Origin: Intoshia linei
Taxonomy: Eukaryota; Animalia; Orthonectida
DNA: 37,005 bases
Direction of reading: 5' to 3'
Assembly: GCA_001642005.1 (NCBI GenBank)
Contig: LWCA01000243.1
Location: forward strand, 1 to 37,005
Shown here: positions 1,033 to 32,881 of the stretch, one piece after another
Position numbering within the stretch: the stretch's first letter is position 1
Layout: each line of letters opens with the position of its first letter
The notes under the pieces: model-generated
What the model saw: the letters and a program-made list of their open reading frames with translations, nothing else
Databases searched by the model: none
What the model was told of the DNA's origin: nothing
Position numbers and translations under genes: made by a program

Positions 1033-1198
1033 GTCATAGAGGGGTTTATGTATCAAAACATTCAATTTTCTAATGTTGCAATATGAAAAATATTGGGCAA
1101 TTAGAGGAGGAAATATTGTTTATCATTTTATACATTATTATTATTGTTAATAAATGTATTTTCCCTTGTTATAAATGCTTATATAATTTATTTTCTAG

Positions 1199-4100
1199 AA
1201 ATTTTAACATATTTTATGCCATTTTCCATGGACTACCAGAAAATTTATGTAAAGAATTTCATATATCTGAAAACCACAATTTTAAAATTTTAAATATAGT
1301 AATATTTATAAATATAAAAAATAATTGTATAGTTGCGTTGTTATCAACATTATCCAGTATTATATTCCAATTTTTGGAATACAGATTTATATTATGTAAT
1401 AATTGTAGAATACCATTGATGGAACACTTCAAAAGTGGAACAGTCAAAATTTAAAGTTCAGTTCAGTTTAATATTTATTTTATTGGCATAAAATATTACT
1501 GTTCAAAGATTTCTTCACTGCATACAACTATTGCCATCCACCTAAAAAATTTAATTTAGATAAATCTAACCTCGATTATATCATAGCTTTTCATCCATAT
1601 TGCTTATTGAGCTGTGTTATCAAAAATGAGATGTGTATTTATTGAATGATTATATACATTTTTTTTATTTTTTATAAATTAATTATAATTTATTTATTAA
1701 AAACATGATAAATTCTGCTCTTTTAGTTTGATTTTATAATTGCATTGGATAAAAAAATATTTATGGTGTTCACACCAAAGAATATTTTTTAATATGGTTT
1801 GTAGGTTAAAAATTAATCTTAATATTTCAGTTTTAAATTAGTGTGGCCAGAAAAAAGACGTACTATCAATTTTAGTTTATTTGATGGTAAATGTAAAGCC
1901 AAAACTACTTATCTATGATGACGAATAAAAATTTTCGGCTTAAAATTTATTCTAAATAAACTATTAGTGATAGTACGTCTTTTTTCTAGCCACACTATTT
2001 AAATTAAGTCTATAGTGGATGAATTTGTATGAAGCTATATTGATAATTCAAAGTTAATTGTTTAGTTTTTCAGTCTTAACTTAGGTTGTAGGCACCATTA
2101 TTCAATTTATAATATAATCAGATGTAAAGAAAAGAAAAAAGATTTTCTGATAAATAAACAATGAATAAATCGATTGGAAACATAAAGAATTTATACTAAA
2201 AAACACACTTTAATTAATTTTTTTATTTGCATTAGAAACAACTCTACTTACAATGTTATCGTCCAATTCTGACTGCACTATTAACTTGACCAGATTTACC
2301 ATACTAGCCGATTATTATCATTTATAGTTATAATAAAGTTTATTTATAGTTTGTAATTTTTAATTAAATTTATTTAAATTGAACTTTAAATTTTGACTGT
2401 TCCACTTTTGGGGATGTCCCATCAATGGTATACGGCAATAATTAATGGGAAAATTAAGATACTCGGTTTCAGTGATTGAAAATTTTTTTTAAATTCCCTT
2501 TTACAAATGTAGCAAATTCAAAAATGATCCTCTAATTCGGAATAAACATTAATGGGTAAATAAAATAATAAATATGTAATAGAATTTTTTTTCAATGTAC
2601 AATTTTTCTAATTAATAATAACTTATTTCTAACTGTTTAAGTAGACAAGGTCTTATGGATTTAAGGAGATTTAAGATTTAAGATTAAGATTTAAGGATTT
2701 AAGGTCAACACTTTTATGATTATTATAAAACACATTTTAGCAATAACCTTCAAAATATCCTTTAGATTTTTTTAATTTTACAAGTTTTCGATTAATAATT
2801 ATTAAATTAATATTTATTTTTATTATTATTTTGATAAATTATAAATTAAAACAATTTTTGAGATTGTTTACCAAATTTACTCATATCTTTTCGGATTGTA
2901 ATTTGCATTCCAAAAAATTAGTTAGTTTAGTTGAATAATCCATAAATGTAAGGATTATTTTGATTGATGAATATGGGCGCTAATATGATAAAGTTTCGGA
3001 ACCTCTCCTTTACACACTTTAAATTTCATAAATTTTAGATAAGCTCTGATGATGATGAGGAATTTATCGACAAATACCACAATATGGTCAAATCTATTAA
3101 AATGGCTGGAATATCTATATATTTAAGAAACAAAATATTTAAAACGCTGGTCACTATAATGCACATAGGAAATGTTGATTACGTTAAAACTTCGGTAAAT
3201 ACAATTTTATAAATTGTGTCAATCAAAAGTCAATAAGTCAAACATATGATTAATTTGGCGTATTCAATATATTGTTTAATTTAAAATTTAAATTACACTA
3301 AACAGTTTTATTTTTAAATTTAAAAAAGTGATTATTGAGTGCTAGCTTGTTTTATCTTGAAAAGTCAGATTTATGATTGATTGAGCTGAAAATTATAATT
3401 TTGGGTAAAAAATAAAGGAAGAATATTATGTAAATAAGGCATTCTCAACTCTTGAATCATGGTTGTTAATAATAAGGATAACTACATATATTTATATATG
3501 TATAATAGGGTGTCACACCCATCAAAGAATCAAAGGCAATTAGCACTAAAGGTGTGTATTTTTAAAATAGAAAAACTATTTCGCAATCAAAAACATTTAA
3601 AGCTATTGATTCGAGTTGCGTTTGTCATCTTAAATATCACTTTAAAAATATTATGGAGAAATTAAAATTGAACTCTATTTTAACGGCAATGGACGTTTGA
3701 GCTTTTCAATGTAGTACCGATTTTATAATATTGTTCTCCATGTTTAGTTATACAATTTATTTTTTTAAATTTGTTTTTAGCTAATTTTTTTTGATTTTAT
3801 TAACGATTTAATTTCTCGAATTATGGCAATTTACATTATTTAAATTGTATTCAATGCATAATAATGCATTGCATATAATTTAGTAAAAATCCTACCGTAT
3901 CCGAGATTCGACGTCGGAGGGATCTAGAAGAAAAATTTTTAAAATGGAGGCATTAATTTGCTAAATTGAACATTAAAAAAATCTTGAATAACATAAATAA
4001 TTTGTATTTTAAATTTAAAATGCCCACTTAAGAGTCTCAGAGATGTGGATAGGGTTATATAGCACTACAATTTGCTAATTTTTTTAAAGTTCGATTCTGG

Positions 4101-7100
4101 GATCTACTATCCAACTAATTTAAATCGTGAATTAGATTAAATTTAAGGCACGTGAAAATTATTAACGTTATGCAGTGAAACCTTCCTTCATTTTGAAAAA
4201 ATGTTTATAAAATGTTTACGTTCACTAATAATAATAATAAATGATCGATAATGAATAATATTATAATTTAATTTTATTTAAAATGTTTCTTGTGGACCAC
4301 CTCGAATTTCCTATGGACCACTTTTGAAACAACTGATTATTATGGATTCTTATTATTATTATTAACATATTATGGAACATAGTAAATATCATATGATATT
4401 TTCATTTCATTATTGTTCGATATTAACATAGCTGGGCATATTTATATCAAATTTTAATAATTATTAAAAGTTATAATTGAATTCATTTTCTATAACACTT
4501 TATAATAATATCACCCTTAATAGAATTCCATCCTTAATGTTCCATCAATTCATTAAATTTTTTTTAAAACAGGTTGCATAATCAATATCTGATTTTTCAG
4601 AGAATCCGAAGAAAATTTTTCGATAATCCAATAAAAAGTGAATCAGCCTTTTTGGAAAAGAATTTGGAACGTTTATTAAGAAATACACTTAGAAAAAAGT
4701 GATTTTTAGAAATGACTCAATACTGACGTAAAAAATAGAAATTTTGGCCCATATAATCATTGTTATAATTTTAATTAGTTGTAACGAAGTTTAGTGTTTA
4801 TATTTATGTAAGATTTTTCGAATAAACCCCCATTATCACATTGCATTTAACTATTATCACATTCAAAGTAATTACTATCACATCGCTTGTAATTGTTATC
4901 ACATTAACAATCGTTATTCCATTTTGAATTTAGCTATTATCACATCGATTGTAATTACTATCATATCGATAGTGAAATGGTATAGATACGGACTAGTGTG
5001 CATTCACATACTGACAATTATTTTAAACACATTTTTTATAGGAGGGCCTATAATAGTTGAATAAGACCGGGGGTCGACAATACTTTTTTTGGGCACCAGT
5101 ACAATATACAATATTATCACATATGTAGATGGATGGTGATGTTACAATAACAAATAAAGACATAATTCCAATAATTGCCGAGCTATTGGAGGTTTATTTT
5201 TATATGATAATTATACTTATAATCACATTAAGATTGAAGAAATAGTTATAAGCAGTATGCTTCTAGTTCAAGAAAAAAGAATATCAGAAGAAACTATTAT
5301 CATTCCATATACATTAGATGAGGTATCATCATAATCAACTATATATAGTTACTCATTTGTGTATTGAATCAAAATAATGAGTCATTACATGTATTACTAA
5401 CATTTAAATGATCAGTAAATCACGTTTAAAATAATGTTGATTTTATTTAGTGTAAAAGATTTCAACAATCAATTTGTAAGAGTATATACTTGTACTTATT
5501 TAAATGGATCATTAGCATAATGAACAGACAACTAAACGTATCTGATGAAAAGCTTATGGTAAACTTTATAAATGTTCTAGCTTAAATGTTATGTACTTCG
5601 TACAACCAGCAGCTAGCTCTGCTGACGGTCAACTTTTAATTGAAATCAGAAAATTAGTATATTATCTTAAAAATAATCCAATTATAGTTAAAATCGTTAT
5701 AAATATAGTCGATTCTGTTCTAGAGGAACATGAAGGGATCAGGTTTTGATCATGTGTTAATAGGATACAACTGTACAACCTGTAAAATTTTTTAAATTCG
5801 ATGGCTGTTTTCATTAAAAAAAAAAGGGGTAATTTGGGGTTTTGGCCCTGAAAATATAATTTTTTTAAATTTAAATTTATGGTAATGTATATGATTTTAA
5901 AATCCGTATCAGTGTATATATTTTTTTAAATTCTCCAATTCGTTTAATTTTTAAAAAGAGGGACAACTAGGGTTTTTGACCCGTAAGATGTGAAATTGGG
6001 AGGTTGAAATTTAATTTTAATATACTTCCCGAAAAAAACTGTAATTGAAATATGGTCTTTAAAAAATTCTAAGACGAGTAGTTATTTAAATAAAGCATAA
6101 CACACACACAGAAACAAAAATCGCGTAGCATATTATATAAGTTAGGATTTTTTTAATACTCAAATGTCGAGGCCCCAGAAGAGTGTTTCATGGTGCGGTA
6201 TGTTCTGCACTAGGTACTTATGGTAAAAATTATCCAAACCTCGTTGACTCAACGACGTTGAGTGAATGATTTACAGTTTAACACGATAACAGGCAGTTAA
6301 AGAAATTGTTCAATTAAATGTGATATTGAGTGAATTAATTGAATTATTATTAGAGATTATATATTCAGTTTTATACATTAAATTGAAACATATTTAGTTG
6401 GGTAATATCAATATAGTCGACATGTATAGATTTGAAAATTTGGTGGAAAACAATTTTGAACAATTTATCGGAAATTACATTACCGAAAAAATAGACAATG
6501 TTTTGCTATCGAGCATATTTCGATATCGGAAGGTAAATTTCTTTCGTTTCACTTCACTAATTCCAATAGATGTTGTATATGTCGGAAGGACAGGAATACT
6601 TGGAAAATAACATTTCATATATGAATGAATCTCTTTACTCTGATAAAAATTGCGGTTTATTCATACTCATCAATGAAGAATGTCGGTAATTTATACTTTT
6701 ATAACGTTTTCTCATTACTCATTATTTTTTTGTTTGTAGTTTTAATTATTTATAAATTAGATATCGAGTTGGTAATGCCGAAAGACTGTCACAAAACATT
6801 CACAGTCAAAACCCATCAACTTCAACACACATAAAAATGAAAATGTTAATATGTCATTATAAAGATACAGCAAAATATGACATTTCAGTAAATTTTTAAT
6901 TGTGAATACTTTCAAAATTTTTAGACTTTCCGGGAAAAAAATATGGACATTGCATCAGATATAATAATGCAAATTGGAATACACACAAAATCTTTATTTT
7001 TAAATGATATTATACGTATTTTTTTATTAATAATATTTATAAATTATAATTATTATTGTTATTCTCAATTTCTTTATTTTTCAACCGGAAATTTAGATTT

Positions 7101-10100
7101 TGAATTGTCATTACATGAAACACTGGCAAAATTGCGATTATTTATAAAATTTATTATAAATTTAAAATGTGCTGTTACATTGAGTAAATTTTGTCTAATA
7201 AGTACGTTAATTTGATTTAGAACAATGCAATAAGCTACAAATCAAAGGGTATATATTATAATAATATTCTATAACTTGGAATTACATTAAATCATAAAAA
7301 TCGAAAATCTAATTTTTGATCTTACTTTGCACGTTTACTTGAAAAATCTTATACAACAGTAACAATTTTGAATCACCACCGAACAGATATAAGCTGTTCA
7401 CCCAATTTTTTTTTAAATTACTTGAAAAAATTTAAGTGCACCCAAATGGAACAAAGGGTAAGAAACACTGATTATATGGAATATTATTGATAAAGTTGGG
7501 ACCACTGTACTATTTTTCAGTATTCAAGCATGTATACAATTGGATGTGAGATTTGATAGAGGTTTGATAGAAATGGATTCGCTTATGACAAAACGTTAGT
7601 TACCCTTGTTTTAATGAATATATTTTACAATATAAAAATTTTAATAGAGTTGATTGAATTTTTGCAAGATTTTTGTAACTTGACTAAGTGGCCATATTTG
7701 TATAAAATGTTAGTACCCTAGTAGAGAATCAAAAAAAAATTTGAAATTTATTTTCATTATTTTTGTGTGAATTGTAAAAATTGTAGAATTTTTTCAAAGT
7801 CCATAATATAAACAATATGAAAAGTCTGATTTAGATCTAAGTATGCATAAACAACATTTATTTACATTTTCAAAGTAAGGATTTATTTTATTTTTTTTAG
7901 AATGAAATCACGGTATTTATTAAAGAATCGACATCAATACTCAAACTTTGCAGTGTAATCAAACATTTTTCATTGATCAATATATTTTAGATTTGCCACA
8001 CTTAAAAGCAATATTGACGTATTTTTAAGTAGTATTATTAGTCTATGTAAACAGTGTACTTAGTGTATTTTTTAAATTTACTTTATCATGAATCATGATA
8101 CTTTATATAATGATATTGATCATGTTTATAATTCAGTACTTTATTTTTGGTGGCCCTTTCAGTAAATATGTAAATTATTTATTTTTAAATTTTTTCATCT
8201 TTAACACCGTTTTAAACATTTTCTACTATAATTGGCTCACTATAATCATTTTAATACTGATTTTTTACATTTATTTTTTTTTTTTACAATGGATTTTATT
8301 TTGTTGAATATATTACAACCGTTTAATTTCAGTTAAAACTGAAATGTATCATGTGTAAATATTCAAAAACGAGGCCCGTATAATTTTTTGGTATAAAAAA
8401 GTGACCCATTAGATGCAAAAGGTTGTCGACCCCTTATATACATGTATAATAAACATTAGGAGTGTGAATTTTAGTAGTTTTTTTTTTTTTTAAATTTTAT
8501 GGTGCAGGAACGGATAAAGTCGTGTATGGTAGTTTTATGGTTACACTGAATAAAAATATTTTTGAAGAATTTTTTGTCGACCCATTTCATTTCAAAAATT
8601 TCATACAAAAATGTTCTACAAAAACTAAAATAACTTTATTTACTGGAATGTTATGAGATATTGTAGGTATATTTGTAGTGGTTTTGTGTTGATCGTCATG
8701 TTTGGTTGGTAACTTTGCATCTTTGAATTTTTGTTTTTATAATGAAAATTTTTATAAAATTATGAGAACTTTAAACATCGATAAAATAATAATACATGTA
8801 TAATATACATTATATATATTAATATGTTATTAGTAAAGTATATATAATATTATCATTAAACTATATTTAATTAAAATTCACATACATGTACATAAAAAAT
8901 ATAATCTGAAAATTCCCTTTAATGTTTATCATTTATGTTCATCTATTTAGATGTTAAAAAGAGTTTCTGAAAAATCGAAAGCTGATACTGTTATATCTAA
9001 AGTTGAGGTAAATATAAAGTTACATTTTTTGATAGATTAACAACTATTTGAGTTAATTAATAGATAGCCGTGCAAGAATTAATTGAAGAAATTGAAAAAT
9101 CTGAACCTCATATTATTCGTTGCATTAATCCAAACAAACTAAAAGTAAAAATAGTTATGTTTTATTTCTACAAATCGTTAGTGCTATATGTCTACAAGTC
9201 AAGTCGACATATATTTTTTAAACGTTATTTTATTGACAGGGGTTGTAGTGCGAACATTCAGTTGAGTAACATAATCATCGATTTTGTTAATTAATCAAAA
9301 TATTTATTTTTTGACAATATTTTTGTTGTTTCTTTAATGACAATGACCAAAATTTTGTAGGATTTTGAAGGGAATATTTATCATTTTATGGGATCTTCAA
9401 AATATTTACAAATTGGTTAAAAAATTGCCTTAAGAACCCTACAAAATTATGAATATAAGATAATAAAAATAATTAATAACTATGAATAAAGAAACCGACT
9501 ATACGTTCGTGAAAAATTCAATGATATGATAGATTAGTAAAATCGATGATTATGTCGCTCTAAAACAGTGCTTTCCATCCGGTGTGTCATGACACTTTTG
9601 TGTGTCGCCAAACTTAAAATTTTATTTAATTTTTTTTTAAATTTCATTAGCAGACAATATAATTGGAAGACGTAAAAATGTAAATCAAAGATATTTTTAG
9701 TAATGATGATAAATTTTACATAGCTTATTTTTAGATTATTATTAGAAAAAAATTGGTTCAACTATATTTATTAATCAATCCTTTATTTTTTTGATTGGTG
9801 TGTCGCGAAATTTTTTGAGATTGAAATATGTGTCGCCAACCAAAAATGGTTGGAAAGCACTGCCCTAATGTGTATCGTTCCAACAGTACATCGCTCAAAC
9901 GAATGTAGCTCCAAAGAATGGAAGTTTGTTGTAGTGATAAAAATTGGATTGCTATTTTTTAAGCATTATATTATTTCAAATAGGAAAAACGACTTTTTGA
10001 TGAATCCTTCGTATACCAGCAATTGCGACATTCGACCATATTTAATCAATTCAACCTCTTATTAAAAGAATACGACAACATCATGACCAAAAATGTAATT

Positions 10101-13100
10101 ATATTCAAAATTTAGTGTATTTTCATCGTCAGAATATATGGGAGATCAAGTAGATGATGACATCATTGTGTCAAAATCTTTACTTATATAGAGAAAAAGT
10201 TGCTACAAATGTGTCTCTGTCTATCTGTGTACCATTTATTTAGAAAACTGACAGTCCCAGATATTTCAAAAACAAAACATATATTATCAGTTTACGTCCA
10301 AATAGTTATATTCATGGTCAAACCACAAATCACCTTTTTTAAAAGAATAATGTCATAAAGTTTAAAAAAATACAAATTCTGGAAATGTTTTAAAATCATA
10401 AAAATTATCATAAATCTCAACATTAAAAACTATATAAAAAATATTAACATATAATATATGTCATATATGTACATTAGGGCTATTCCATTTGTCTAATATA
10501 AAAATGACATAATAGAAAATGAGCACCGCTTAATTTGCTGCAGAATGATAATAATATTTTTTATTTTTATCCAAAAAAACCCCCGCGTCTTGAAGTTTAA
10601 AATTTTAATTTTATGATTTTTCAGTTAATTTATTGAAAATTTTAATAATTCCTTGTCGTGTTAATAAATTTAAATATAATATCAATTTTCAATTTTTAAT
10701 TAATATTATTAATTATAATATTAATGAATATTGAAATGATTTCATCATTTAAAAGTTTACAAGAAATTTCTGAAATATTTTCATATTTTGTTGAATCAAA
10801 CGGTATAATAATGACCATTGAACCTTGTGAAAGATGATTTTCGACATTAATTAATGTTATTAAATTAACTACAATTATTGTATTAAAGTTGAAAAAATAT
10901 GTTCAAAAACTATAAACAAATGTAATTCATATTTGTTTCTTTGTTCTATGTAAAAATAGTTAAAAAATATAAATAGTATCTACGGTAATAAAATATTCAA
11001 AAAAGTAATGAATTAAATTTTATAATTTTTAAACTAGTTTTACTCTTAATATTATAAACTTAACAAAATTATTTTATTACAATATTACTTAATAATTATT
11101 TGAGTAGAAGCATTTAAAATATTTTGACCCAGTTCATATAAATTCATGTCTTTTTTATGATATTATATAATTTTTTTTTATTAATATAATTAGTGTCAAA
11201 TGATCTATGTCATATCTTAAAATTATAACAAATGCATGGAAACTACGGGGGAAAAAATGTTTGGAAAATAGAAAAGGGTAAACACGCGGGGGTTTTTTGT
11301 GACCAAAATAAAAAAATTATATCATTCTGCAACAAATTAAATGGAGATTATTATCTTTATATGTCTTTTCTAAATTTTAAAAAAAAGTCTAAATTGGAAT
11401 AGCCCTAATGTACATTATGTATATTATAATATTTAGGAATTTCAATATCAATATGATTTGATATTAGTACATTACGAAACAATTGAAAATCTTTTAGTGT
11501 GTGTGGGTTCCAGTGACCATTACAAAATTGGATTAGGAAAGGTATTTTATTGCATACTATAGATTAGGCGATATTGCTTTATATTTTAAAGCATACAGAA
11601 CTTTCTATTTTCATATTATTACGTAGATGTAACCTATATTAGATTATACATAAATTGATATAATTATTTTACTTACCTGCGTGAGAAAAATAAACAATAA
11701 GAATATTAATTCACTGTAATTAAGCTTGAAAAAAGGTACTAATTAAATATTTGGAATACAATGTATTATAATACATATATCATTTATATATGTATCATTT
11801 ACTTAAATTTCTGTGTCTGAAATGATAAATCACTTAAAACTTTTTTATTTAAACGGACGGTAGCAGATATATTTAGAATCTAGATTTTAGAATATCATAA
11901 ATTAAAATTATTGAATGCCAACAAAATTAAATTATATCCACTATGCGCGGTCAGTCAACCTTATATACAAATTGTAATAATTTTTATTGTAATTGACAAT
12001 ACAATAAAATAGTAAAATAATATCAAACGTCAATATCTAAGTTATTATCTTATATTTAAGTGACCATATGAAGAGCTACTCAACCAGTTTTGCGATGTTT
12101 CCGATGTTGGTCATTATAACAATCTCATAATGTAATTAAAGTAACATTGCCATTATATAATACATAGGTGTTTCCCTCAGAGCCATCTTAAGCCACTTCG
12201 TGACCCTGGACTAAACAAAGGACCGGAGACCCTTTAAAGTTTTGAACGAAGCAATAAAAACATTTAGGGCCCCTTTTTATAAGCTGCTTTTTTGAAAATT
12301 AATAATAGAAAATCAAAGATTTCCTACTTCCTTTTTTTGAATATTCACTTAATAGAAAGATTTTAATGTTTAATCAATTTATTGATTGATTATCATTGAT
12401 TGATAATGACATTGACAATTGATTATCATATGAAATAGTTTTTATGTCAATATTATATGATGAACATTGTAGAATATATTTTAAATTAAATATTTTAACC
12501 AGAACTTTGATTCTTTAAACTATTTTCTTTCTAGCTATTTGAATTCCCCACACTTCAAAACTTATAAACTGTTTCTTAAGATATAAATGTGAAGTATTTT
12601 TTAATAAATTGGGGCCTCTTTTTAAGATATAAGTGTAAAGTACTTTTATTAATTTCGGGGCCTTTTTTAATGAGTGGCCCTGGATTACAGCCCATACTAC
12701 CATGCCTTAAAACGGCTCTGGTTATTCTAGATAAAAAAGATTGAAAATCATTGATTAATTCATTTATCAGTGACCATAATTAATAGATAAGATCTAAGAT
12801 TATAATGTATATTTTAGTCGTTACTATAAAAAAAAATCCGGAATTGTATTGACTATATGAGTGAGCAAATAAAAAATAAATACAAGTTACCCTCATAAAT
12901 ACAGTGTATACATAATATAGTACAGAGTACCATACATAACAAATAAACAAACAAAATATTTGTACAAATACATGAATATCTTAAAATGTAAATTTTAGAT
13001 TTTTCTGAATAATACAATTTTGATAAAACTTGACAAGATACAAAACATGTGTTACAAATACATTACAAAAAATATATTTAAAGTATACAGCCAAATTCAA

Positions 13101-16100
13101 GTATTTTTTTTGAAAGAATTTAGTTTATACTGTAAATTTAGAAAAAAGAATCTGAAAAATATAGAAACGAACGCAAATTCAGTCTATTAGATTCGTAAAA
13201 TTATATCATTTTGATACTTATATTAACTTTTATTCATAAATATTCAAATTAAATTAGAACTGATAATTATTTATCATCATACATGGACAATTTGGAAGAT
13301 TTGTACAAATCCAGTTTAAATAAACCGGCAATTTCTGTTAGAGGCATCAGTAATTGGCGATCTAGTATTTCCTCCAATATGAAATGTAATACTACTATAA
13401 TTATATTATAATAGATATTATACATTGTATAACTGTATTTATTCCAATTTTTTTCATATTTACTAAAAGTTTTTTTTTAATTTTTATTTCAAAAATTATT
13501 TTTGTCTTTGATATATATCCTAACTTATATAATATGCTACGCTATTTTTGTTTGTGTGTGTGTCTGTATGTTACGCTTTATTTAAATTTTTTAAAGATCA
13601 CATTTTAATTACAGTTTTTTCCAGGACGTATAATAAGATAAATTTCAACCTCCCAATTTCACATCTTACGGGTCAAAAACCCCTGTTGTCCCTCTTTTTG
13701 AAAATCAAACGAGTTGGAGAATTTAAAAAAATATATATGTTGCATAGAATGTGTACAACTGTGAAATTTACACATTCCACGGGCAAGTTGTAGAATGTGT
13801 AAAACTTTCATTTAATTACGATTTTTTTTGAACCAAACTTTCAAGAGGGGTTTTTAAGATTTTTAGAAAACAAAATAATTGATTAGTTATCAATGATTTC
13901 TGTGTCAAATGTCAAATATGTTTCCAGTTATAAATTTTATAAAATTTATATATCGCTTTGTGAAGAGTGTGAAATGCGTCGCAACAAAAAAAGCATAAAA
14001 TCTATTGTTGTTAAGCCAATTAGATCATCAGATATTAACAGTAGAGGCCCAGTAAACTAAATTGATATGCAGAGTCATGCGGATGGCCATTAAAAGAAGG
14101 AGACTGTGTTAGAATCCCCATACCTCGTATTGATCGCGGACGACTTGATCCAGGAAATTTAATATTATGGTTAATATGGTATAATCATGGTGTCGTAACA
14201 GGTGTCGACCATGGACAATATACAATTGGAACATCTTCCGGTAAAATTGAAAATAACTTTACAAGAAACCAAATTCAAAAATGCCATCAACAATTAATAA
14301 ACCCTGAAGTTCCAAACCAAATTTTGAGTTTACGTTTTACTGTACGCGAGAAGTCAATTGGTTGATGTCAAGGATTTTTTAAGTGTAATTGCAAAAGTGG
14401 GTGTTCGGGTAATTAATGTAAATGCAAACGTAATTCAATTCTTTGTAATAGTCGCTGCCATCACAGCTTGTCTTGTACCAATAGATAAATATGTATATTC
14501 ACTTATATTTAGTATTTAATTTGAATCTGCTTCAACTTATCATGTATTCATTTCATTGTTCTTGGTTCATTATTATTATCGTTATTTTGGAAATTCCATT
14601 CAACGACTTATCCATGAAATGTGTAAATTTCACAGTTGTTTACATTCTATACCACATATACGCTGATGCGGATTTTAAAATCATAAACATTATCATAAAT
14701 TTAAATGTGAAAAAAATGATATCTATGGCCAAAACCCCAAATTACCCTTCTTTTTTTAATGAAAACAGCCCTAGAATTATTTTTTTATAAAAATGTGCCC
14801 TCGGCAGACTAGGTGCTGTTTGTATGTAGTACATAACAGTCAAGCTAGTAGTATATAACATTTGGCATCATTTTCTATTTATAGTGTGCTAGGTGGTCAC
14901 GTGATCTGCCTGTTGTAATAGGTAGTAATTATTAGATACAAATTGTGAGATGCAGAAGATTTATTAGATTATAATGTACTTTTTACATGGTATTTAAGTC
15001 GCTTGGTCGTGTTAATAATTATAATTTTAATAAATTATTCACAAAATAAATAAATATCCATAAAAACGGAGCGGTATATGTCTCATATTATATCTGTGTA
15101 AATATTTAGTTTTTAATTTTACAGCTTATTGTAGATCGCTTGACTTTGACTTATAATATTATCATTTAGGTAATTTGACAAATATAAATTTCCAAAGTTC
15201 TCGGAGAAATGAAAAAAAAGGTTTAATATTAGAATATTAATGTAAATATCAATTGTAATTGTGAATCACATAAATGCAGTGGATGATAGATAGCGCAGAT
15301 GAGTGTTTCTCAACCTATTTTCCATTCCGCGCACTTGGCAGTAATTTAAAAAATTAATATCTGCTGCTCACTGAAAATCTTTATTACTGCATTAGATTCT
15401 ACAAGGAATAGGTGCAAATTTAAGATACAATGTGGTTTTTTCGATACCAAAGACAAAAAATGTATAGTATAGATCAGTGATGGCAACCAATCAAATGTGG
15501 TGTGTTAATTTTGAGATTTTATTTGAAAATTATTTTATGGTATATTTTTCAGCAAATTTTTCAATTGAATGGAAAATGTCTATTGAACAAATTTTTTATA
15601 TTTAAATTTTAAATGATGCGCAAAAGAACCTTGTTTACTCATGGAATCTATTTCTTGATAAGTTTATTATTTGTAAACTAATTTTTAAGGCGCAGATTTT
15701 GTGAATTGTACTTTTATTTTTAAATATTTTTAACACAAAAACACATTTTTTGCGATCACTGGTATAGATTCTATAGTATAGAATCAGGGGTGTCAATTAT
15801 ACGGTCCACGGGCCATTTGCGGCCCCAAATTATGGAATGTGCGGGCTGAGTTACAATATAAATTTTTATTTTTTACACATATTTCTTATTTTACAGTTTT
15901 TTCATATATTTTTTATGATTTATTTATTCATTATTACAATTTTAACATTATTTGTACACTTATTTCATTGTTTTTATTTCATATTTCATTTTATGAATTA
16001 AAATTATTATAATCAATTAAAATTGTTAGTTTTAACATAATTTTTTGAGTATAGATTTTTTTTGTGCGGCCCGCGTAATAATTTTTTTTCACATTTGGCC

Positions 16101-19100
16101 CACCAAGAAAATTGAGACTGACACCCCTGTTCTATACTATATAACGTAAATGGTAGAGAGGTCGCTATACGTTTATATTGGCCCACGATAAAAAATATTT
16201 TGGAAACATGAAACTGAAAAATGAAACTAGTGGGCTAGGCGCACGGCTGAGAAACACTGGTGCACATGGAAATAATTTTATAATCTATGTAGGAAATATT
16301 TACTTTCCATTTTTATTGGCTTCATATCTAATTAAATAAATTCGAGGTATAGATATGTTTCCACTGCTTATAATATTTAGAATATATTTGATTAGCACAA
16401 AGTATCATTTTCAATTTTAATTTTAGATAACATAATTCCCACTTTTCCGAATATACCTAATCTCATTGAAAGTCGAAAAGGTATAATAAGATTTTGCAAA
16501 GTTCTCATCATTAAAGTAAATAATTTGATAAAATGTAACCATTAATTTTTTTAAATTAATATAGGTTGATTCAAATGTAACAAAATCTGTAATGAAAATG
16601 TGGGATGCAGAGGCTTTTAAAGAAATTTTGAAAAAGATGCTTATAAATCGCTTAAAAACAGAGTTATTCAAGATAACCGAAGTGGTAAGAATTTTTGTTT
16701 GTAATTAAATTATTTTTTGTTAATCAAAAATAAATCATTTTATCCTTTATTTGTAACTGACATTTGGAAGTTTAAACCATTTATTGACTTTATAAATCGT
16801 AAATTAGTTAATAAAGTTAAGGTAACCGTTAAATTGAAAATATTTAAATTTTTATGTGGATGCGCGAATATTTGAAATCTATTTCCAGATTGCCATTTCA
16901 TGACTCCATGTCCTATTTTTATAATAATTAATTTCTAAATATTAATTTAGGTTTCAGTCAATCATAAAATGTCGTCGGATGATATTTTACACATTGTTAA
17001 GAGAATACTACCTCAAGAATTGAAAGATTTTGTTGAAACTTACCCATCAGTTGAATTTGAATTAAATTCTCTTGAAACAGCTTCTCAGCTTTTGTTTTAC
17101 GAGAAATGTCAAAAGTTTAAAAGGAAATCTTCAAATTTAACCGGTTTTGTTGATAAATTCTCCAAAGCAGAAGAAACTATCAGGGTAATTAAAGTATTAT
17201 ATATATTAGTATTATTATACATTATACAGTAATATAATTATAATAATTATAATAATTTACGTTTATTGGAGGTATTTTTGTAGATTTAGCTAAGATGGTA
17301 AGTGGTCAGGCCACTTAATTGATCTTAATAGTGATTCCACATTTATGTAAATTAATATCTCAAGTTATAAAAATTTTAGATGAATTGTGGTCATCGTATG
17401 GTGATAGAGCATTCAATAATACCACATTACTGTGAATACTGTAACAAATTGATCGATATATACGACAAAATATATAGATGCCTGAGTAATTCTGATTATT
17501 CACTTACAATTACAGTATAACCACGATTTGGGGAAAATTAATAAAATTTAAATTTTTTTTATATTAAATGGAAACACTGTATTATCTATGATTTTTTTTA
17601 GATTTAATTCAAAATTCTGGGTCTTAGAATCTAGTAAAATCAAAATAATGGTCAATTTGTGTTTTCACAGTGAAGATGCAAATTTATTAGAGTCTAATTT
17701 ATCTTACTTTATGCGCCAGAAAAAACTGACAGAGAATTTATATTTTTTAAATTTATGGGTCTCTTAGTCTTATAAATTAATGGTTATACAGCTGACATAC
17801 ATTATTTATTATTATTTATTTATAAACATATACTTTATATAAGTTTACTTTTACATAAAAGTAAAAGTTTCAACAGTGTCTGATATAATTTTTCATAATT
17901 TAGCTTGTGAATACGTTATTCACCGAAAATGCTTGACTAAAAACAAGAGAATATGTATAGGAGCCAAAACCGTAATTAAATACAGTATATGTATGGTATT
18001 AGGACAATGAACAAAATATTTATTTTTTATTACAGACCCATTCCATATATTTTGAGCACTTAGTAAAATAGCCGCAATCTGTATACATTTTCAATTTTAT
18101 AATTTTTTAAATGGCTAACGTACTTAATAACAGAAATTCCATTCCTTAAAAAATTGTTTTGGTTGTGGTTGAGACGATACATTAAATTTAATAAAAACTG
18201 ATTTATTTATAAATAACAATATTTACTCTTTCAAATATTTTGAGCACTTTCACTTTCAAAAATGTATTTTTTGCAATATAGGTAATTAATATTATTCTTC
18301 TTTGAAATTTCAACTAGATGCGTCAAATAAATATTCGGAAGCGCGAATTAGTTGTCACATATTCAATAGAGGGTATACACAAGTAAAATTTGCTAGAGAG
18401 CTTTCCGTATTCAGATGCGCAGTTCAAGAAATAATTAAAAAGCACCAAAAAGGTCTACCTCTAATTAATCGACCTAAAAAAGGAAGAACAAGAAAAATGT
18501 CAGTCAGGGAGGGTCATTTATTAGAAATTAAAGCAAAATCAAACCCTTTCTTGACTGCTAATGAGCTGCGAAATTTGATATCGTCGGATACAACCTTTTT
18601 AAATTTAATTTATTTAATTATGTCGTTTAATCATTTAATTAATCACGGGTGCTTAAAACTATGAACAACTAAAATTATTATAATTTAATAATATCATCAT
18701 TCTTATATCTAATAATTATCTAACAGACTTCAAATTTAATTAATAACTTCCGATCATATTTGCATTCCCTCAAATATAAAATAAATTAATGAAAAACACT
18801 TATAAATAAAATAATTATAAATTTTATAAGGATCTTAAAACATATGGACGGGTCTGTATCATTAGGGCCAACAATGTCATAAAAATAGTTATTTTTTTTA
18901 ATAATAAAAAAATGTTAGAAATGTAAGAGGGAACTCTAATAAATACATTTAATGGAGTATATCGATTTTTAAAAAGTCATAAATGTCATATTTCTGACAT
19001 AATTGTCATAATAATATTATTAAAGTCATAATTTAAAAAAATGTTAATTCTCCTAACGAATATACCTAAAACGATAATATAAATTAACAATTTTCTATTA

Positions 19101-22050
19101 TACAGTAGACACTCGAAAAGTGACCACTTCGTATAGATGACCACCTCCCAAAAGTGACCTTTTTAAGACAATATAACAAATCCATACTAATATAAATAAA
19201 TTTCTCTTCGAAAAAGTAACCAAAAATATAAATTAAAACAATTCAATTATATTGAAGACCAAATTAATGACGTTATTGACAATAGCAATATAGCAGAAAA
19301 TAAAGAATTGGAAGATTTTGAAGAATTAAGAAAGGATGGAATCTATGCAATATTTAATAATCTTAGAAATTATGCAAACCAACATTGTCCAAAGAATCTA
19401 GAAGATATATTTATTGGAAAGCAAAATGATACACCTCAAGTTTGTTTCAAATGAAATCACTCTGAAATATTTTTGTATAATAGACAAATAATATATGATT
19501 AGTTTAGAAATTTTTCGTCTTATTTTTAATATATTTTCAAGATGATGGTCAACGTAATTAATAATTTTAGTCGATTAATCAATCAGCTTCTGTTTCAGTT
19601 ATTGTTAAAATGAATTGCCCAAAAAAGTGGTCACTTTTCGAGTGTTTACTGTACTGTGTGAAATCAAATCAATAAAATAATTAACTAAAATATAAAAATA
19701 TATAAAAAAATATAGTTTTATAATATTTAATTATTTATATATAATATAATAATACAGTGTATAATATATACTAATAATAATTAATAATACAATCGTGTCA
19801 AACTTTCGGCCCGCCGCAACTTTGTATATGTATATTAGGGTGTCAATTTTTTTCACAAATTGTCGAATCTCATTGGCGCATGGTTCTAATCGTCTAATTT
19901 TAAGATTTATAATATTCTAAATTCTTGTTTTATAAAATTATGTATTCGAGTGGGCACTTCAATTACACAAATTAATAATAATTAGAACCTTGTAATTGTT
20001 TCGAAAAATGTATCATCTATATTTTATATCACAAATAATGATCAAAATTTGTACTATATATGTAAGATTGTAATTTTTAGTTAATAAGAAACCTAATAAA
20101 CACTCCAATTCATCAGCTCATTGAAAACGATAAAATTCCTCCAGCTATCGAAAAACTGTTAAATTACATTGAAACAAAAAAACCCTATACTGAAAGAATT
20201 TATCGATTAAGTGGTGCCAAGAACAAATTGGATCATTTTATCAACATTCTCAACCACTGTGTGGATGGTATACTTTTTAATTTTAAAATTTAAGATGGTA
20301 AACTCTTTTTATGCATCATTTCCGGGAAAATAAAGCAGTTTTTATTTTTTAAATTTTCCAAGCTTTAATTAGTCATCTGATTATCAAATTCTTGAATAGT
20401 AATTTCTTGACTATATAAAACCAAATGAGCAAAAGATAAATTTTTTAAGTTTTGTATTCTAACCGAAAATATTTAATTTAAGTGTATTGTATTTCTTGAT
20501 TTACAATCATCACAATTTATACTTATATTTTAGATGAACGCGTTACACAGTTAAATCCTGATGAATACGATATTAGTATTTTATGCTCATCTGTTAAATA
20601 TTTTTTAAATCAATTACCAGAACCTTTAATCAACAAGGAATTTTTACCTTTATTAATTGAAGCCGCCGGTAAATTAAATTAATAATCATTGTCTTAATTA
20701 AATTTTGTAGAAATGGAGGATCTATTTGATAGGTATTTATTATTTCCCATTATATACATTTATGTGAAAATTCAAAAATGTATTAAATCATGATTCAGGA
20801 TATAACAAATAAATAAAAATTTATAATTTTTAGATATGAAATTATTAGCAATATAATATGTCGAATGCCCAAACATAATGTAATTTTATTTGACAGAATA
20901 ATCAACCATCTAGCAATGTAATTTTTTCAAATATCTTTTATATCATTTCATATCTTAAGGATGTCAAAAATATGACATATTTCACGTTTTAGTGCGAACC
21001 GTCACGACTTTGTACCTTTATTTAATATAATCTCTGTCTATAGGCTAAAATTTAGCCTAAATCTAAATTTTAGGGGGAAATTTACATTTTTAAAAGCTAA
21101 ATAATGTATCACTTGGAATAACTCAATTTCGATTACGTTGAGAATTGATAGTCAATAAATCTTTGAAACTTTTTGTAGTAAAAAGTTTATTTGACGACTG
21201 ATTAACTGCCACGCTCTTTTAGAAATGTTTTTAATGTAATTACATTGTAACATGTAAAACATACATTTTGTCTAATAAATTAAAAAAATAAGGTAACAAT
21301 TGTTTTCAAAATTCTTTATACAAATGTTAAAAAAAATTAAGATGGAATAGTTCACTTTAAAGTAAAAAGTAATGTGATATGACATGAAATTCCACCTGAA
21401 ATAAGTTTGGGAATCAGTCCTTTAAAGGATTGATAACAGTGAATAGTAGGATTTTTAAGTTAGATTTTCAACGTGAATTGATTTTTTAAGTATAATAAAA
21501 ATGACCCTCGGCAGAGCTAGGTGTTGTTTTTACGTAGTACATAACAGTCAACCTAGTTACATTATAATAATTATTAAGAATATTATAAATGGAATCTAAT
21601 AAGAAGAAGGTTTAGCTACCCTGTGTTATACATTTCTTTATTTCATTTTTACTCTACTAAATTGGTTATTCAATTATATTTAGAATTGCACGTGAAAGTA
21701 ATATTAACAAAATGGATGCTCATAATCTTGCAATTATATTTGCTCCAAACGTAATTCAACCAAATTACGATGAAAAATCAATGAAAAATAATCTAATCGA
21801 TGCCTACATAAAGTAATGTTTTCATAAATCTAAACTGTGCCGAATTTTTCGTCATAGTTTTGGAGGGAATCTATAAAATTAATTATGGTTGCCTTTTAAT
21901 CACCAATAAATAGCATATTTAACTAATGGAACTATAAAATAAATGTGCTGAATCCCTGGTTCAGATTATTTATAATTCATTATATTTAGAATAATTGAAA
22001 CAATGATCACCACAACCATATACATAATTGACGGAATGTCAGAAAATTAA
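1199..22050 (+). CDS. MYO9: Class IX unconventional myosin (myosin-RhoGAP), divergent motor, 5'-partial, multi-exon
   Basis: Phase-compatible GT-AG exons. Motor: 1199-1298 (NFNIFYAIFHGL), 1333-1356, 3039-3194 (IFKTLVTIMHIGNV), 5129-5191, 5233-5322 (ETIIIPYTLDE), 5451-5558 (ICKSIYLYLFKWII), 6398-6532 (IVDMYRFENLVENNFEQF), 6570-6685 (GLFILINEEC), 6761-6887 (ICHYKDTAKY), 6925-7015 (TFREKNMD, class IX-like), tentative loop-2 exons about 7648/7669-7708 and 7901-7952, 8951-9007, 9064-9144 (EPHIIRCINPN), 9984-10094 (FDESFVYQQLRH), 11437-11541 (YKIGLGK), 12999-13100 (IFL). Neck/tail: 13142-13194, 13258-13385, 15170-15220, 16427-16515, 16565-16684, 16951-17184. C1: 17380-17485 and 17904-17971 (GH..IPHYCEYC..C..C..HRKC..C). 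RhoGAP: 20081-20267 (YTERIYRLSG), 20534-20668 (KYFLNQLPEPL), 20711-20732, 20834-20917, 21684-21812 (NKMDAHNLAIIFAPN), 21990-22050 (TAA). Motor + C1 + RhoGAP is diagnostic of class IX. The P-loop and switch I are not seen and presumably lie upstream; a possible earlier exon is at 136-195/205. Confidence 0.9.
1839..1997. mobile_element. Small fold-back MITE
   Basis: 30-bp inverted repeats TAGTGTGG(C/T)AGAAAAAAGACGTACTATCA with 1 mismatch, continuing imperfectly inward, with TA at both edges. Confidence 0.75.
2658..2704. repeat. Short tandem repeat of GATTTAA(G)
   Basis: About 6 imperfect copies: gatttaagg a gatttaa gatttaa gattaa gatttaag gatttaagg. Confidence 0.6.
4830..4970. repeat. Array with about 21-bp period and conserved TATCACAT core
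   Basis: Cores start at 4834, 4855, 4876, 4897, 4915, 4938 and 4959, separated by variable linkers. Confidence 0.7.
5577..6147 (-). mobile_element. Non-autonomous Helitron, full-length copy
   Basis: On - it begins A|TCCTAACTTATATAATATGCTACG and ends with a hairpin (TGTAC-GAA-GTACA) then CTAG. It shares internal sequence (CATCTTACGGGTCAAAAA, GCTGATACGGATTTTAAAATCAT, CCCCAAATTACCC) with the other copies. No TIR or TSD. Confidence 0.75.
9566..9862. mobile_element. hAT-type MITE
   Basis: TIR CAGTGCTTTCCA...TGGAAAGCACTG with subterminal TGTGTCGC repeats. The 8-bp flanks are degenerate (CTCTAAAA/CCCTAATG). Confidence 0.7.
10177..10430 (+). mobile_element. 5' fragment of diverged Helitron family member
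   Basis: Starts A|TCTTTACTTATATAG..GCTAC and contains CATGGTCAAAACCACAAATCACCTTTTTT as in other copies. No 3' CTAG end. Confidence 0.45.
10475..11407. mobile_element. hAT-type non-autonomous element with perfect 8-bp TSD
   Basis: Termini TAGGGCTATTCCA...TGGAATAGCCCTA with long imperfect subterminal inverted arms (AAAAAACCCCCGCGT / ACGCGGGGGTTTTTT). TSD ATGTACAT at 10467-10474 and 11408-11415. Confidence 0.85.
12178..12720. mobile_element. MITE with CAGAGCC termini
   Basis: CAGAGCCATCTTAAG at the left, and reverse complement of the right end CAGAGCCGTTTTAAG. Internal GGGCCC/GGGGCC motifs. Confidence 0.6.
13518..14848 (+). mobile_element. Non-autonomous Helitron carrying a nested Ginger2-like insertion
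   Basis: A|TCCTAACTTATATAATATGCTACG ... CTGTTTGTATGTAGTACATAACAG-TCAAG-CTAG|T, inserted between A and T. Confidence 0.8.
13738..14656 (+). mobile_element. Internally deleted Ginger2/TDD-like (KRBA2/SCAND3-like integrase) DNA transposon
   Basis: TGT...ACA ends with imperfect TIRs of about 55 bp (ATAGAATGTGTACAACTGTGAAATTTACACATT). A 4-bp TATA TSD is inferred from the empty site AATATATACGCTGAT in sister Helitrons. Pseudogenic peptides: SLCEEC..VVKPIRSSDINSRGPVN*IDMQS, EGDCVRIPIPRIDRGRLDPGN, and QGFFKCNCKSGC..CKCKRNSILCNSRCHHSLSCTNR. Confidence 0.8.
15475..15761. mobile_element. Nested hAT-type MITE with perfect 8-bp TSD
   Basis: CAGTGATGGCAA...TTGCGATCACTG, with TSD GTATAGAT at 15467-15474 and 15762-15769. 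Confidence 0.75.
15785..16129. mobile_element. Nested hAT-type MITE
   Basis: CAGGGGTGTCA...TGACACCCCTG with subterminal GCGGCCC motifs. Confidence 0.75.
18033..18856 (+). mobile_element. Internally deleted Tc1-family transposon
   Basis: TA-flanked TIRs CAGACCCATTCCATATATTTTGAG, and reverse complement CAGACCCGTCCATATGTTTTAAG. An internal direct repeat ATATTTTGAGCACTT at about 18235 suggests the IR-DR type. Confidence 0.8.
18302..18595 (+). pseudogene. Tc1 transposase N-terminal DNA-binding fragment
   Basis: GYTQVKFARELSVFRCAVQEIIKK (HTH), RPKKGRTRKMS (GRPR-like) and KSNPFLTANELRN. The DDE domain is absent. Confidence 0.75.
19103..19651. mobile_element. pogo/Tigger-like non-autonomous element
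   Basis: TA-flanked 26-bp TIR CAGTA(G/A)ACACTCGAAAAGTGACCACT, subterminal TGACCAC repeats, and an acidic ORF-like remnant at about 19250-19420. Confidence 0.8.
21345..21556 (+). mobile_element. 3' part of a Helitron family member
   Basis: Ends CCCTCGGCAGAGCTAGGTGTTGTTTTTACGTAGTACATAACAGTCAACCTAG|T. The upstream part resembles 22710-22830. The 5' limit is uncertain. Confidence 0.65.
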
Positions 22051-22951: not shown

Positions 22952-25900
22952 TTAATTTAACATTTTTAAATAAATTAAATGTAATTCTTTATAATCAATT
23001 TTATTTGCAGATACAATAGTTACATTACGTTTTATTTCATCCTAATAAATGTTTTAATAAAATAAAAATTGACTGACTATTCAAAAATAAATCTGTTATA
23101 ATAATGTGTCACGCTAGAGATTCTCAAATACAGATCAGCTGCCTATTACAGACACATACAAAAAATTTACCAGTTTGCAGAAAAAATTAAATGTTTTACA
23201 TTTAATGTTTACAGTTCGTGGCAGCTAGTTGAGACTTTTTTTACCTGTTCGAATTCAATTTTAAAAAATTTATAGGGTTAATTTTTTTTCTGTGATCAAT
23301 ATAATTATCGTAAATTTTATTTATTCTTCACTACCCGAATGTTGTTAATATAATAATAATTACATTATAATATCGAATGTTGTTTTTCAACGTGAAACGA
23401 TATTGTGTACATTCCGCTTCATCAAATGTATCAAAATACTCCGAATTTTCTTCCTAAAAAAATACTTTACATATTCCAGTATTAATTAATTTCAAAATAA
23501 TTATGTAAAGTTTACATTGCACGCTTAATTATCAATAAAATTTAAAAGTATAATTTATTCTATATTCATTTATGAGAAGACAATACAAAAATCTTTTTAA
23601 ATTTAAAGAGTCACTGTGAGAAAAATATTGAGAAACCTTATAAATGACACGGTTCGAATACAGTGTACATTTACTGTGATTTTATACATCGACTTAAAAT
23701 TTTGTATACATTGTACAATACATATAAATTTGTATAAAGTACGTATAAATTTTTCTAAATAAAATAAAATTATTATAATCACACGGATTGCCCACGGAAG
23801 CACATAAACGTCCTGACACCGCAGGTTGCGCACCCCTGATCTAGTTGGATGAGAAAAAAAATTATGAAGACCCTCGGTGAATATTTAATATCTACAACTT
23901 TATTTAAATAAAAATAATAATTACATCATTTGAAAATTTTTCATCCAGTTCATTAGCTGTTATTGTCATAATTTTATTACCAATATTGTCAAAACATTTA
24001 GTCCAAACATTTCCAGTGTAATCAAAAATACAAGCATTCAATAAATACGAGTAATTAAAGTTTTTAAATGATTTTTGACATTTTTCACAATTGTATATAT
24101 CATTTGTGAATATCAGCTTTTTATAACAATTTTCTGAAAGGCAAGACTAAATTTCATATAATAAATGGTAAAAATAATAATCCTCGTTTATATATAAAGT
24201 AACTAGCTTGAATTTTATATTTTCCATATAAATAACAACTGGCCCGCTAAGGTCAGAGTTTTTAATTTAAATCCAATTTTTTAATTGATTATAGATAATG
24301 AATATATAATAATATACTATATTATTCTGCTCAAAATGTAATTTACTACATTTTTCAAAAGTCATATTTTATATATAAACTTGTATAATGAATCAATCAA
24401 AGCAATGATTATCAACATTGAATATATCTCAAAATTATAATATTTAATGTCACTAAATTAGGGGTGCCGGTGTGGAAAAAGATTAGTAAGTCATCATTTA
24501 AATGTAACCATATAAAATGCATCATATATTTATATATACCGTCAACCCTTTCAATTTGAACACAAGGTGTGCAAAATGTTTGAGTATTGAAGTTGTAATA
24601 GAATTACACGTTAATAATAATAATATAAATCATGTTATATTGTCAAATAAAATACCTTATAATAGGGAGAATCACGTTTAATTGTCATTATTGTTCCTAT
24701 GATGTCGAAATATTCCATTTTTTCACTTTTCATTTTATTTAAATCAAAAATTGTTTCAATTTTTTTTTCAGTTTCGATGTAATCTAGTGACATTTAAAAT
24801 GATATATTATATCAGGTATATAGTCAGGAATCCTGACTCAGGATATAAATCTAATGAATTTATGTTTGAAGTTTTAATAAAAAAATTTAGTTATCATTTG
24901 ATAATATTTGCGGTACACTGAAAACCATTTCTTAGTCAGTTTGTTAGACTATCTTTCACCAAAGTTTTTTCTTTTTAACAGTTTAGTGTACTACCCTGTC
25001 GAAGGTCGTTCAAAATATTTCAGCAGAATAATGCATCAATCCATAAATCTCAAGAAACAAAAAGGTGGCTAAATTCAAAGATGTTAAATGTTTTGGGATG
25101 ACCGGTATGCTCTCCAGATCTAAATCCTATTGAAAACTTAGGGGAAGTTTCTTTCTCGCATGATATATAAGAATGACACACAATATAGAAATTTAAAGTA
25201 GTTAAAAACGACAATTCAAAAAGCCTGGACATCCATACCAGCATATACAATTTCTACCCTCATTTCTAGCATGGACGACAGGATTTTTGAGGTTATAAAG
25301 AAACATGGTGGCCACACGCATTCTTGAACCGTATTTATATTATATATTTTTATCATTTTATCAAAAATAAAACTTTAAAATGATAATTGTGCTATAGTTT
25401 TGTCACACATGAAATACTTATATTTTCGATAATTAGTCATTATTATTTTTTTACTTACCATATTATAATTTCGACAGTAAAATATTTATTTCAATGACAC
25501 AGAAGATTACGTAATGTAATAAATTTTAATTTTTAAAAATAATTTGGAAATATCAAAATTTTAAATGTCCTATAGTTTTGTCGCGGAGTGTTTGAGTTAA
25601 TTGCAATAAATACTACATATTTATATTTGTATTCACATAAAATCAAATTCACTCAATATCATACCTTTAGTAAGTTCTTGAAAATCATTCGAATTAGCTT
25701 CAATATTATACCATCCTTTTAAAATGTGAGCTTCTTCAATGTCAAAATTAATAAATAACTGAGAATTTCCTGAAACAGTTAATTGTAATCCTAAATGTTT
25801 AATAAACACAGTTTATAGTAACGTAAAAAAATTATTTTCATAATCCTTACTTATATAATATGCTACGTAATATTTTTTGTGTGTGTGTTACCGTTTATTT

Positions 25901-32804: not shown

Positions 32805-32881
32805 ACAATCAAATTTAATTTCGTTATAGATTCACTAAATAAAGTTTATTCTGAAATATTTCAATTTTTAATTATTCAAAT
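32805..32881. promoter_or_regulatory. Candidate minimal bidirectional promoter
   Basis: 77 bp between divergent ATGs, containing the palindromes AATAAA-G-TTTATT (32838-32850) and TGAAATATTTCA (32852-32863). Confidence 0.4.

Follow-up and report, generated by a model that had tools for sequence, protein, structure and literature searches.

Can a myosin lose its motor and still be kept by an animal, with the head serving as a mere handle on actin? This question is raised by a scaffold of Intoshia linei, an orthonectid, i.e., a reduced spiralian parasite. The window analyzed here is this whole scaffold of 37,005 bases, which is eukaryotic and AT-rich (GC 0.22-0.32) and which carries on its + strand, at 1197-22050, the NCBI gene A3Q56_02574, encoding a myosin head followed by C1 and RhoGAP domains. 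Such an arrangement recalls the class IX myosins (Myo9a, Myo9b and HUM-7 of C. elegans), which are single-headed motors with a RhoGAP tail. In the Intoshia protein, an arginine occupies the position where all other myosins compared keep the glycine of switch II. As a consequence, the head has probably ceased to be a motor driven by ATP. Judged by its residues, the balance tips toward a head that is deficient in both hydrolysis and motility. That a class IX myosin has turned into a pseudo-motor in a living animal, with its head selected only as a nucleotide-independent actin-binding module for the RhoGAP domain, is proposed more tentatively, at slightly less than even confidence.

Replaced residues, class and tail of the myosin

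The amide of the switch-II glycine contacts the γ-phosphate, and the SH1 glycine is the pivot that relays movement to the converter. The original prediction, made from the DNA letters, held that both glycines are replaced in this gene, which is borne out by comparison with 149 and 50 other myosins, respectively. The motifs it quoted, i.e., VDMYRFE, HYKD and the SH2/SH1 string QLRHSTIFNQFNLLLKEY, were all found at their places in exons of the window. The exon containing switch II matches a single database protein, with 98% identity, i.e., the NCBI entry 'hypothetical protein A3Q56_02574 [Intoshia linei]' of 1237 aa (P0001). When P0001 was aligned with HMMER to a solved myosin X, DMYRFE fell on DIFGFE, HYKD on HYAG, and QLRHSTIFNQF on QLRYSGMLETV.

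At switch II, Intoshia has Arg (DMYRFE) vs. Gly in 149 of 149 other myosin representatives (DxxGFE; 139 recognized by a first pattern and 10 by a second one). Long-branch, AT-rich myosins from ciliates and Theileria are among those that keep the glycine; the names of the AT-rich matches, when looked up, included ciliates, Theileria and fungi. For a broader comparison, 54 columns covered by the Intoshia model were used, in each of which at least 94% of 50 myosins from several classes share the same residue. Intoshia keeps this residue in 35 of the columns, carries another one in 18 and shows a gap in one, vs. eight, six and five departures in the next most deviant myosins. Several replacements affect positions that are invariant in all 50 others: the SH1-helix Gly is Thr, the relay Ile of CINYANE is Gly, the Phe preceding HYAG is Met, and the Leu preceding switch II is Val. 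Positions conserved nearly as well have also changed, i.e., the second Gly of the SH1 region (46/50) to Glu, the Ala (48/50) and the Gly (42/50) of HYAG to Lys and Asp, respectively, and a relay Glu (48/50) to Arg. Beyond the converter, a Pfam search of P0001 for IQ motifs (E up to 0.1) gave no match, and a loose IQ pattern applied to 12990-17300 retrieved one degenerate IQ-like motif, in a region where the gene model is NCBI's and has no RNA support. An AlphaFold2 model of the motor fragment had a mean pLDDT of 74.9, with low values only in loop 2, and its top PDB matches were all myosin motors; since an alignment of 33 canonical myosins guided the modeling, this result is not independent.

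The Pfam profile Myosin_head matches P0001 with 150.2 bits (E 9.1e-44) over positions 231-640 of 679, and an exon added to the model (see below) extends the match back to position 189. An exhaustive phmmer search with the motor only, against 1.84 billion representatives, yielded 4490 matches at E up to 0.001. The first non-self match is a Brassica myosin; ranks 2-6 are class IX by architecture, i.e., a protein of the annelid Owenia and named myosins IXa or IXb of the molluscs Plakobranchus and Haliotis, the nemertean Lineus longissimus and the insect Ischnura. Among the top 25 non-self matches, 14 contain a RhoGAP domain, most of them together with RA, IQ and C1, and one more contains RA. Thus, the best informative matches of the motor are spiralian myosin IX proteins. 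The segment corresponding to loop 2 counts 105 residues (17 K/R, 7 D/E), which lies between the lengths in Myo9 (median 190; at least 122 in 25 of 26) and those in other classes (median 53.5; at most 84 in 23 of 24). IQ-TREE, applied to 51 rows, grouped the 26 Myo9 sequences in a clade (SH-aLRT 98) and left Intoshia unplaced on an end branch of 4.4 vs. a median of 0.48. When Intoshia was held with this clade, the tree was 4.23 log-likelihood units better than that of the free search (p-AU 0.616). The class IX identity claimed by the original prediction therefore stands as far as the head-C1-RhoGAP architecture and the best informative matches are concerned, but the motor phylogeny, with this p-AU, permits a place inside the Myo9 clade without proving it. 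In the free tree, Intoshia is joined by long-branch attraction by P0019, a myosin V-like protein containing a DIL domain, AT-rich and itself on a long branch, which keeps DxxGFE. A FastTree analysis of 132 rows was discarded because it split up the Myo9 sequences and drew long branches together.

The tail gives a different picture. Pfam recognizes C1_1 in P0001 with 30.5 bits and RhoGAP with 118 bits over positions 1-147 of 148. All eight zinc ligands of the C1 domain are kept, as read from the pattern in P0001. The RhoGAP domain retains its arginine finger, in ERIYRLSG, as well as the Lys and, in NKMDAHNLAIIFAP, the Asn of the NKM motif, all of them residues with catalytic roles; the invariant Arg of FxRDLP is Asn. 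Thus, at the level of sequence, the residues of tail chemistry are kept and those of the head are not, and the tail is predicted to be a still-competent C1-RhoGAP unit. The retained arginine finger and C1 ligands would fit a RhoGAP domain that is carried by a non-cycling head.

Predicted loss of the motor or fast evolution

The alternative that survives best is that the head is a very divergent yet working, perhaps slow, ATPase motor, in which near-universal residues have drifted and were compensated in a fast-evolving lineage. We consider this unlikely, although it has to be taken seriously, and the points that weigh against a lost motor are best considered together here. High evolutionary rates of orthonectid sequences are reported in a review (PMC6543705). 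The GAP domain of the same protein also sits on a very long branch (4.24 vs. a median of 0.57, and 3.29 vs. 0.53 when calculated with the 21 Myo9 proteins that have both domains) and has lost nine of the 26 Myo9-invariant columns. The motor keeps 54 of 117 such columns vs. 17 of 26 in GAP, a difference which is not significant (Fisher p = 0.086), and its divergence is spread evenly along the domain, not concentrated on the active site. Identity to the same 21 proteins amounts to 23.9% for the motor and 26.7% for GAP, where the Myo9-to-Myo9 means are 48.9% and 43.4%, respectively. A word-indexed protein search with the motor gave ten matches, none of them an Intoshia myosin that could serve as a lineage control; neither of the two protein collections searched contained an orthonectid orthologue, and the best non-self matches showed 26-31% identity.

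Other points on this side concern the motor itself. Besides the 35 of 54 pan-myosin invariants and an intact predicted fold, it keeps three residues of switch II (Asp, Phe and Glu) as well as the FEQ, RCINPN and QL motifs, all of which would likewise be expected of an ATPase that is unusual yet functional. The P-loop and switch I, which make up half of the active site, sit outside the scaffold, and the exons beyond 8018, those of SH1, C1 and RhoGAP included, are taken from the NCBI model with its AG/GT flanks. Furthermore, the effect ascribed to the Gly-to-Arg change is extrapolated from Gly-to-Ala mutants of Dictyostelium myosin II.

Since the GAP domain is also hyper-diverged, part of the oddity of the motor is due to the general fast evolution of orthonectids. 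However, this accounts for the divergence only partly, as the motor drifted further than GAP by branch and bit measures. With the same 21 Myo9 proteins, the end branch of the motor without loop 2 is 6.17 vs. a median of 0.29, although estimates in the range of 6-10 changes per site suffer from saturation and imprecision, and the path ratios for Intoshia are 6.9 for the motor and 2.7 for GAP. The Pfam score per matched profile position is 0.37 bits for the motor vs. 0.80 for GAP and 0.80-0.98 for exons of two other genes on the scaffold, encoding a protein-tyrosine phosphatase (PTP) and RPA1; canonical Myo9 heads and GAP domains score approximately 1.05-1.09. It is also difficult to reconcile a working motor with the retention of the switch-II glycine in every other myosin, the long-branch, AT-rich ones included, and with the gap between the 18 departures of Intoshia and the eight of the most deviant other myosin. 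Moreover, two further residues that are invariant in all 50 myosins and belong to force-transmitting elements are lost in Intoshia, and Pfam finds no IQ motif.

Next, the gene may be a diverged extra copy, if a second, canonical Myo9 elsewhere in the genome freed A3Q56_02574 to lose motor function. A dead head would be compatible with this scenario, which we nevertheless consider rather improbable. The end branch of the motor is approximately 20 times as long as the Myo9 median, a frequent outcome of gene duplication, and the tree does not place the motor firmly inside the Myo9 clade. However, no second Intoshia protein was present among the ten word-indexed matches or among the 20 named ones of the 149 non-self matches, which argues weakly against such a copy.

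Gene structure, transcripts and the switch-II codon

Six sequencing runs contain parts of the scaffold, none of which is recorded as RNA. X1 is a DNA run of 2016, and X2, X4 and X5 are runs of a second study (2024), the kind of which is not recorded. The latter three were treated as RNA-like, since they contain GT..AG-spliced contigs and since X4 has no cover in the introns 2345-2930 and 7326-7618; the spliced form would have to stem from a retrocopy if these libraries were of DNA. The spliced contigs measure 4803 nt (X4), 4345 nt (X5) and 1397 nt (X2). They skip 12 intervals, and all 12 joints are of the GT..AG type, vs. none of these joints in the DNA run X1. When the window is spliced at the contig joints, the frame is open across 12 exons, and it is open across all 18 motor exons. 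Thus, A3Q56_02574 is present as spliced transcripts. The exons and domains on the scaffold, with the evidence for each, are as follows.

1197..1298, + strand: motor exon, RNFNIFYAIFHG..., Myosin_head positions 189-222; first exon of the gene on the scaffold (Pfam; joint 1298>3039 in X2, X4 and X5; open frame)
3039..3194, + strand: motor exon, Myosin_head positions 235-276 (Pfam, spliced contigs, open frame)
5129..5191, + strand: motor exon (joints 3194>5129 and 5191>5233, both GT..AG)
5233..5322, + strand: motor exon (spliced contigs)
5451..5558, + strand: motor exon, helix with Y..LF.W...N, Myosin_head positions 332-369 (Pfam, spliced contigs)
6398..6532, + strand: exon of switch II and the relay helix, with DMYRFE and NNFEQFIGNYITEKID (Pfam, spliced contigs, X1 DNA contig)
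6570..6685, + strand: motor exon, relay loop region (spliced contigs)
6761..6887, + strand: motor exon, HYKD replacing HYAG (spliced contigs, HMMER alignment)
6925..7015, + strand: motor exon, FREKNMD, lower 50K (spliced contigs)
7097..7183, + strand: loop-2 region exon (joints 7015>7097 and 7183>7221 in X2, X4 and X5; open frame)
7221..7248, + strand: loop-2 region exon (spliced contigs)
7901..7954, + strand: loop-2 region exon (spliced contigs)
7991..8018, + strand: loop-2 region exon (start from spliced contig, end from NCBI model)
8951..9007, + strand: motor exon, end of loop 2 (NCBI model only; AG/GT flanks)
9064..9144, + strand: motor exon with HIIRCINPNKLK, Myosin_head positions 566-593 (boundaries from NCBI model only; Pfam piece)
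9984..10094, + strand: SH2/SH1-helix exon, QLRHSTIFNQFNLLLKEY, Gly to Thr and second Gly to Glu (boundaries from NCBI model only)
11437..11541, + strand: converter exon (NCBI model only)
12999..13100, + strand: end of the converter and the only IQ-like motif found, IQNMCYKYITK, from 13038 (NCBI model only)
17380..17983, + strand: C1 domain in two exons, 17380-17484 and 17906-17983, boundaries within 2 bases (Pfam C1_1; all eight zinc ligands)
20081..22050, + strand: RhoGAP domain in six model exons, 20081-20266, 20533-20667, 20710-20736, 20838-20915, 21685-21813 and 21991-22047, followed by the stop codon TAA (Pfam RhoGAP)

The NCBI model maps to 36 coding pieces on the scaffold. Among 143 stop-to-stop frames on the + strand (at least 30 aa, in 1-23500), Pfam detected collinear pieces of Myosin_head in five frames, of C1 in two and of RhoGAP in four. 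The NCBI model is wrong at the 5' end and in loop 2: its pieces 136-195, 3509-3559 and 4938-4979 are skipped by the spliced contigs, and the exons 1197-1298 and 7097-7183, seen in these contigs, are missing from it. The earlier statement that the frame runs through more than 25 phase-compatible exons is confirmed in part: the spliced contigs support 12 introns of the 36-piece model, contradict three of its exons and add two real ones. Two further model pieces on the + strand, 14075-14362 and 18320-18511, look transposon-derived by eye, have no Pfam match and are not flanked by clean AG/GT dinucleotides; the former falls within the bin of highest GC content in this gene region, and the latter has the look of a Tc1/mariner-like helix-turn-helix. 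Both are probably intronic repeats wrongly absorbed into the model. High-copy repeats are also found within introns of the gene at 5568-6153, 1759-2051 and 3517-3809, where the summed contig depth in X1 is 2400-19900 vs. approximately 7-20 in unique bins.

The spliced contigs of X4 and X5 extend 1833-1855 nt upstream of position 1197, and the unique bins of 1-1196 have a depth of approximately 1 in the spliced runs, showing no upstream exons there. Therefore, the P-loop and switch I are encoded by exons outside the scaffold. A switch-I-like string, ARFVKWSINF, in a + strand frame at 410-562 was rejected as an exon; the depth in the spliced runs is approximately 1 at this place vs. 114-269 for the contigs of the gene.

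That the gene is a decaying pseudogene or a transcribed relic is very improbable. The very long branches and the loss of invariant catalytic residues could be so explained, and the NCBI model needed spurious 5' exons to stay open. However, all 12 introns with canonical borders are removed in contigs of three runs, and the frame remains open across the 18 motor exons. In addition, 35 of the 54 invariants, the arginine finger of the GAP domain and all C1 ligands are kept although several changes per site have accumulated; under neutral decay, they would have disappeared. The proposal that this is not a decaying pseudogene thus withstood the comparison. The open frame and the retained invariants support a real gene that is transcribed, spliced, of class IX-type architecture and kept by selection.

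The switch-II exon reads GAC ATG TAT AGA TTT GAA at 6419-6436, with AGA at 6428-6430 (translation of the exon: LGNINIVDMYRFENLVENNFEQFIGNYITEKID...). Since the X1 DNA contig and the spliced contigs of X2, X4 and X5 contain no other letter anywhere in exon 6398-6532, the AGA codon predicted earlier is not an assembly slip. An error for GGA is hardly credible: although a single first-position change separates the two codons and X1 may be the source data of the assembly, the contigs of the second study agree, and many neighboring invariant residues are changed as well.

A putative actin-binding head and its parallels

How would a class IX myosin operate without a motor? In this protein, the switch-II loop, lacking its glycine, would be unable to close on the γ-phosphate, and ATP hydrolysis would be lost. 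With the SH1 pivot replaced and at most one degenerate IQ motif present, a working lever would be lacking, and lever-arm coupling would be lost as well. The basic loop-2 segment of 105 residues and the conserved core of the head may still bind actin. The non-motile head would then be an actin-binding module that sets the C1-RhoGAP tail on actin-rich structures. Whether it is locked with ATP or nucleotide-free would depend on the P-loop and switch I, encoded outside the scaffold.

In the current view, canonical myosin IX carries its RhoGAP activity along actin by processive single-headed movement, with loop 2 as a tether. Intoshia resembles it in having a head followed by C1 and RhoGAP domains, in the kept arginine finger of GAP, and in a loop-2 segment longer than that of 23 of 24 myosins outside class IX. 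It differs in the replaced switch-II Gly, SH1 Gly and relay Ile, in the score of its motor (150 bits vs. 686-782 for full-length Myo9 heads), in the length of loop 2 relative to the Myo9 median, and in the absence of a Pfam IQ match, one of which is found in most canonical matches.

Myosin heads without ATPase activity that tether actin are known in class XVIII, i.e., Drosophila myosin-18 and mammalian Myo18A, and in Limulus myosin-3. The Intoshia head likely works in a similar manner as the class XVIII tethers, if the analogy holds: in both cases a head that has left the ATPase cycle, as is predicted for Intoshia, is retained in a scaffolding protein. The tails are different, with PDZ and coiled-coil segments in class XVIII and C1-RhoGAP in Intoshia. 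The same two positions that changed in Intoshia were engineered in Dictyostelium myosin II, where the G457A and SH1-helix G680 mutants reportedly bind ATP but fail in hydrolysis, or uncouple the lever. Those were single changes made in a working motor, whereas the changes in Intoshia are natural, fixed and many-fold. The closest analogue with measurements is the head of Drosophila myosin-18, which, according to PMC3122231, fails to bind ATP and tethers actin irrespective of ATP; the authors likened it to Limulus myosin-3. It keeps the switch-II glycine and has a Glu-to-Gln change plus an added Pro. The two switch-II regions are, thus, altered in opposite ways, since Intoshia has lost the glycine but retains the Glu. 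The open literature yielded no paper on a myosin IX of Intoshia or on a class IX pseudo-motor, subscription journals being outside this search.

If the class IX pseudo-motor proposed here is real, the role of Myo9 in silencing Rho would be fully separable from motility, and this myosin would represent a natural experiment that sorts the functions of Myo9 that require movement from those that require only binding to actin. It would also mean that "dead-head" myosins arose independently a second time, outside class XVIII, and the list of myosin pseudo-enzymes, with class XVIII and Limulus myosin-3, would gain another class by a different route, i.e., loss of the glycine itself. The value of the case is tempered by the general hyper-divergence of orthonectid proteins and by the fact that Intoshia is not experimentally tractable.

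The remainder of the scaffold contains parts of other genes. On the - strand, at 23904-31875, a multi-exon gene for RPA1, the 70-kDa subunit of replication protein A, is recognized by Pfam matches to Rep-A_N, tRNA_anti-codon OB, REPA_OB_2 and Rep_fac-A_C, in this order. Frames at 24905-25339 (+ strand), inside an intron of this gene, resemble by eye the C-terminal part of a Tc1/mariner transposase, and two pieces tested gave no Pfam match. Two long open frames, one at 32855-33814 (+ strand; 319 aa, acidic and rich in Asn, Asp and Glu) and the other at 32247-32831 (- strand; 194 aa), have no Pfam match. Finally, an exon of a PTP is located at 35749-36126 on the + strand (Y_phosphatase, 90.8 bits, profile positions 14-126), and its gene runs past the end of the scaffold.

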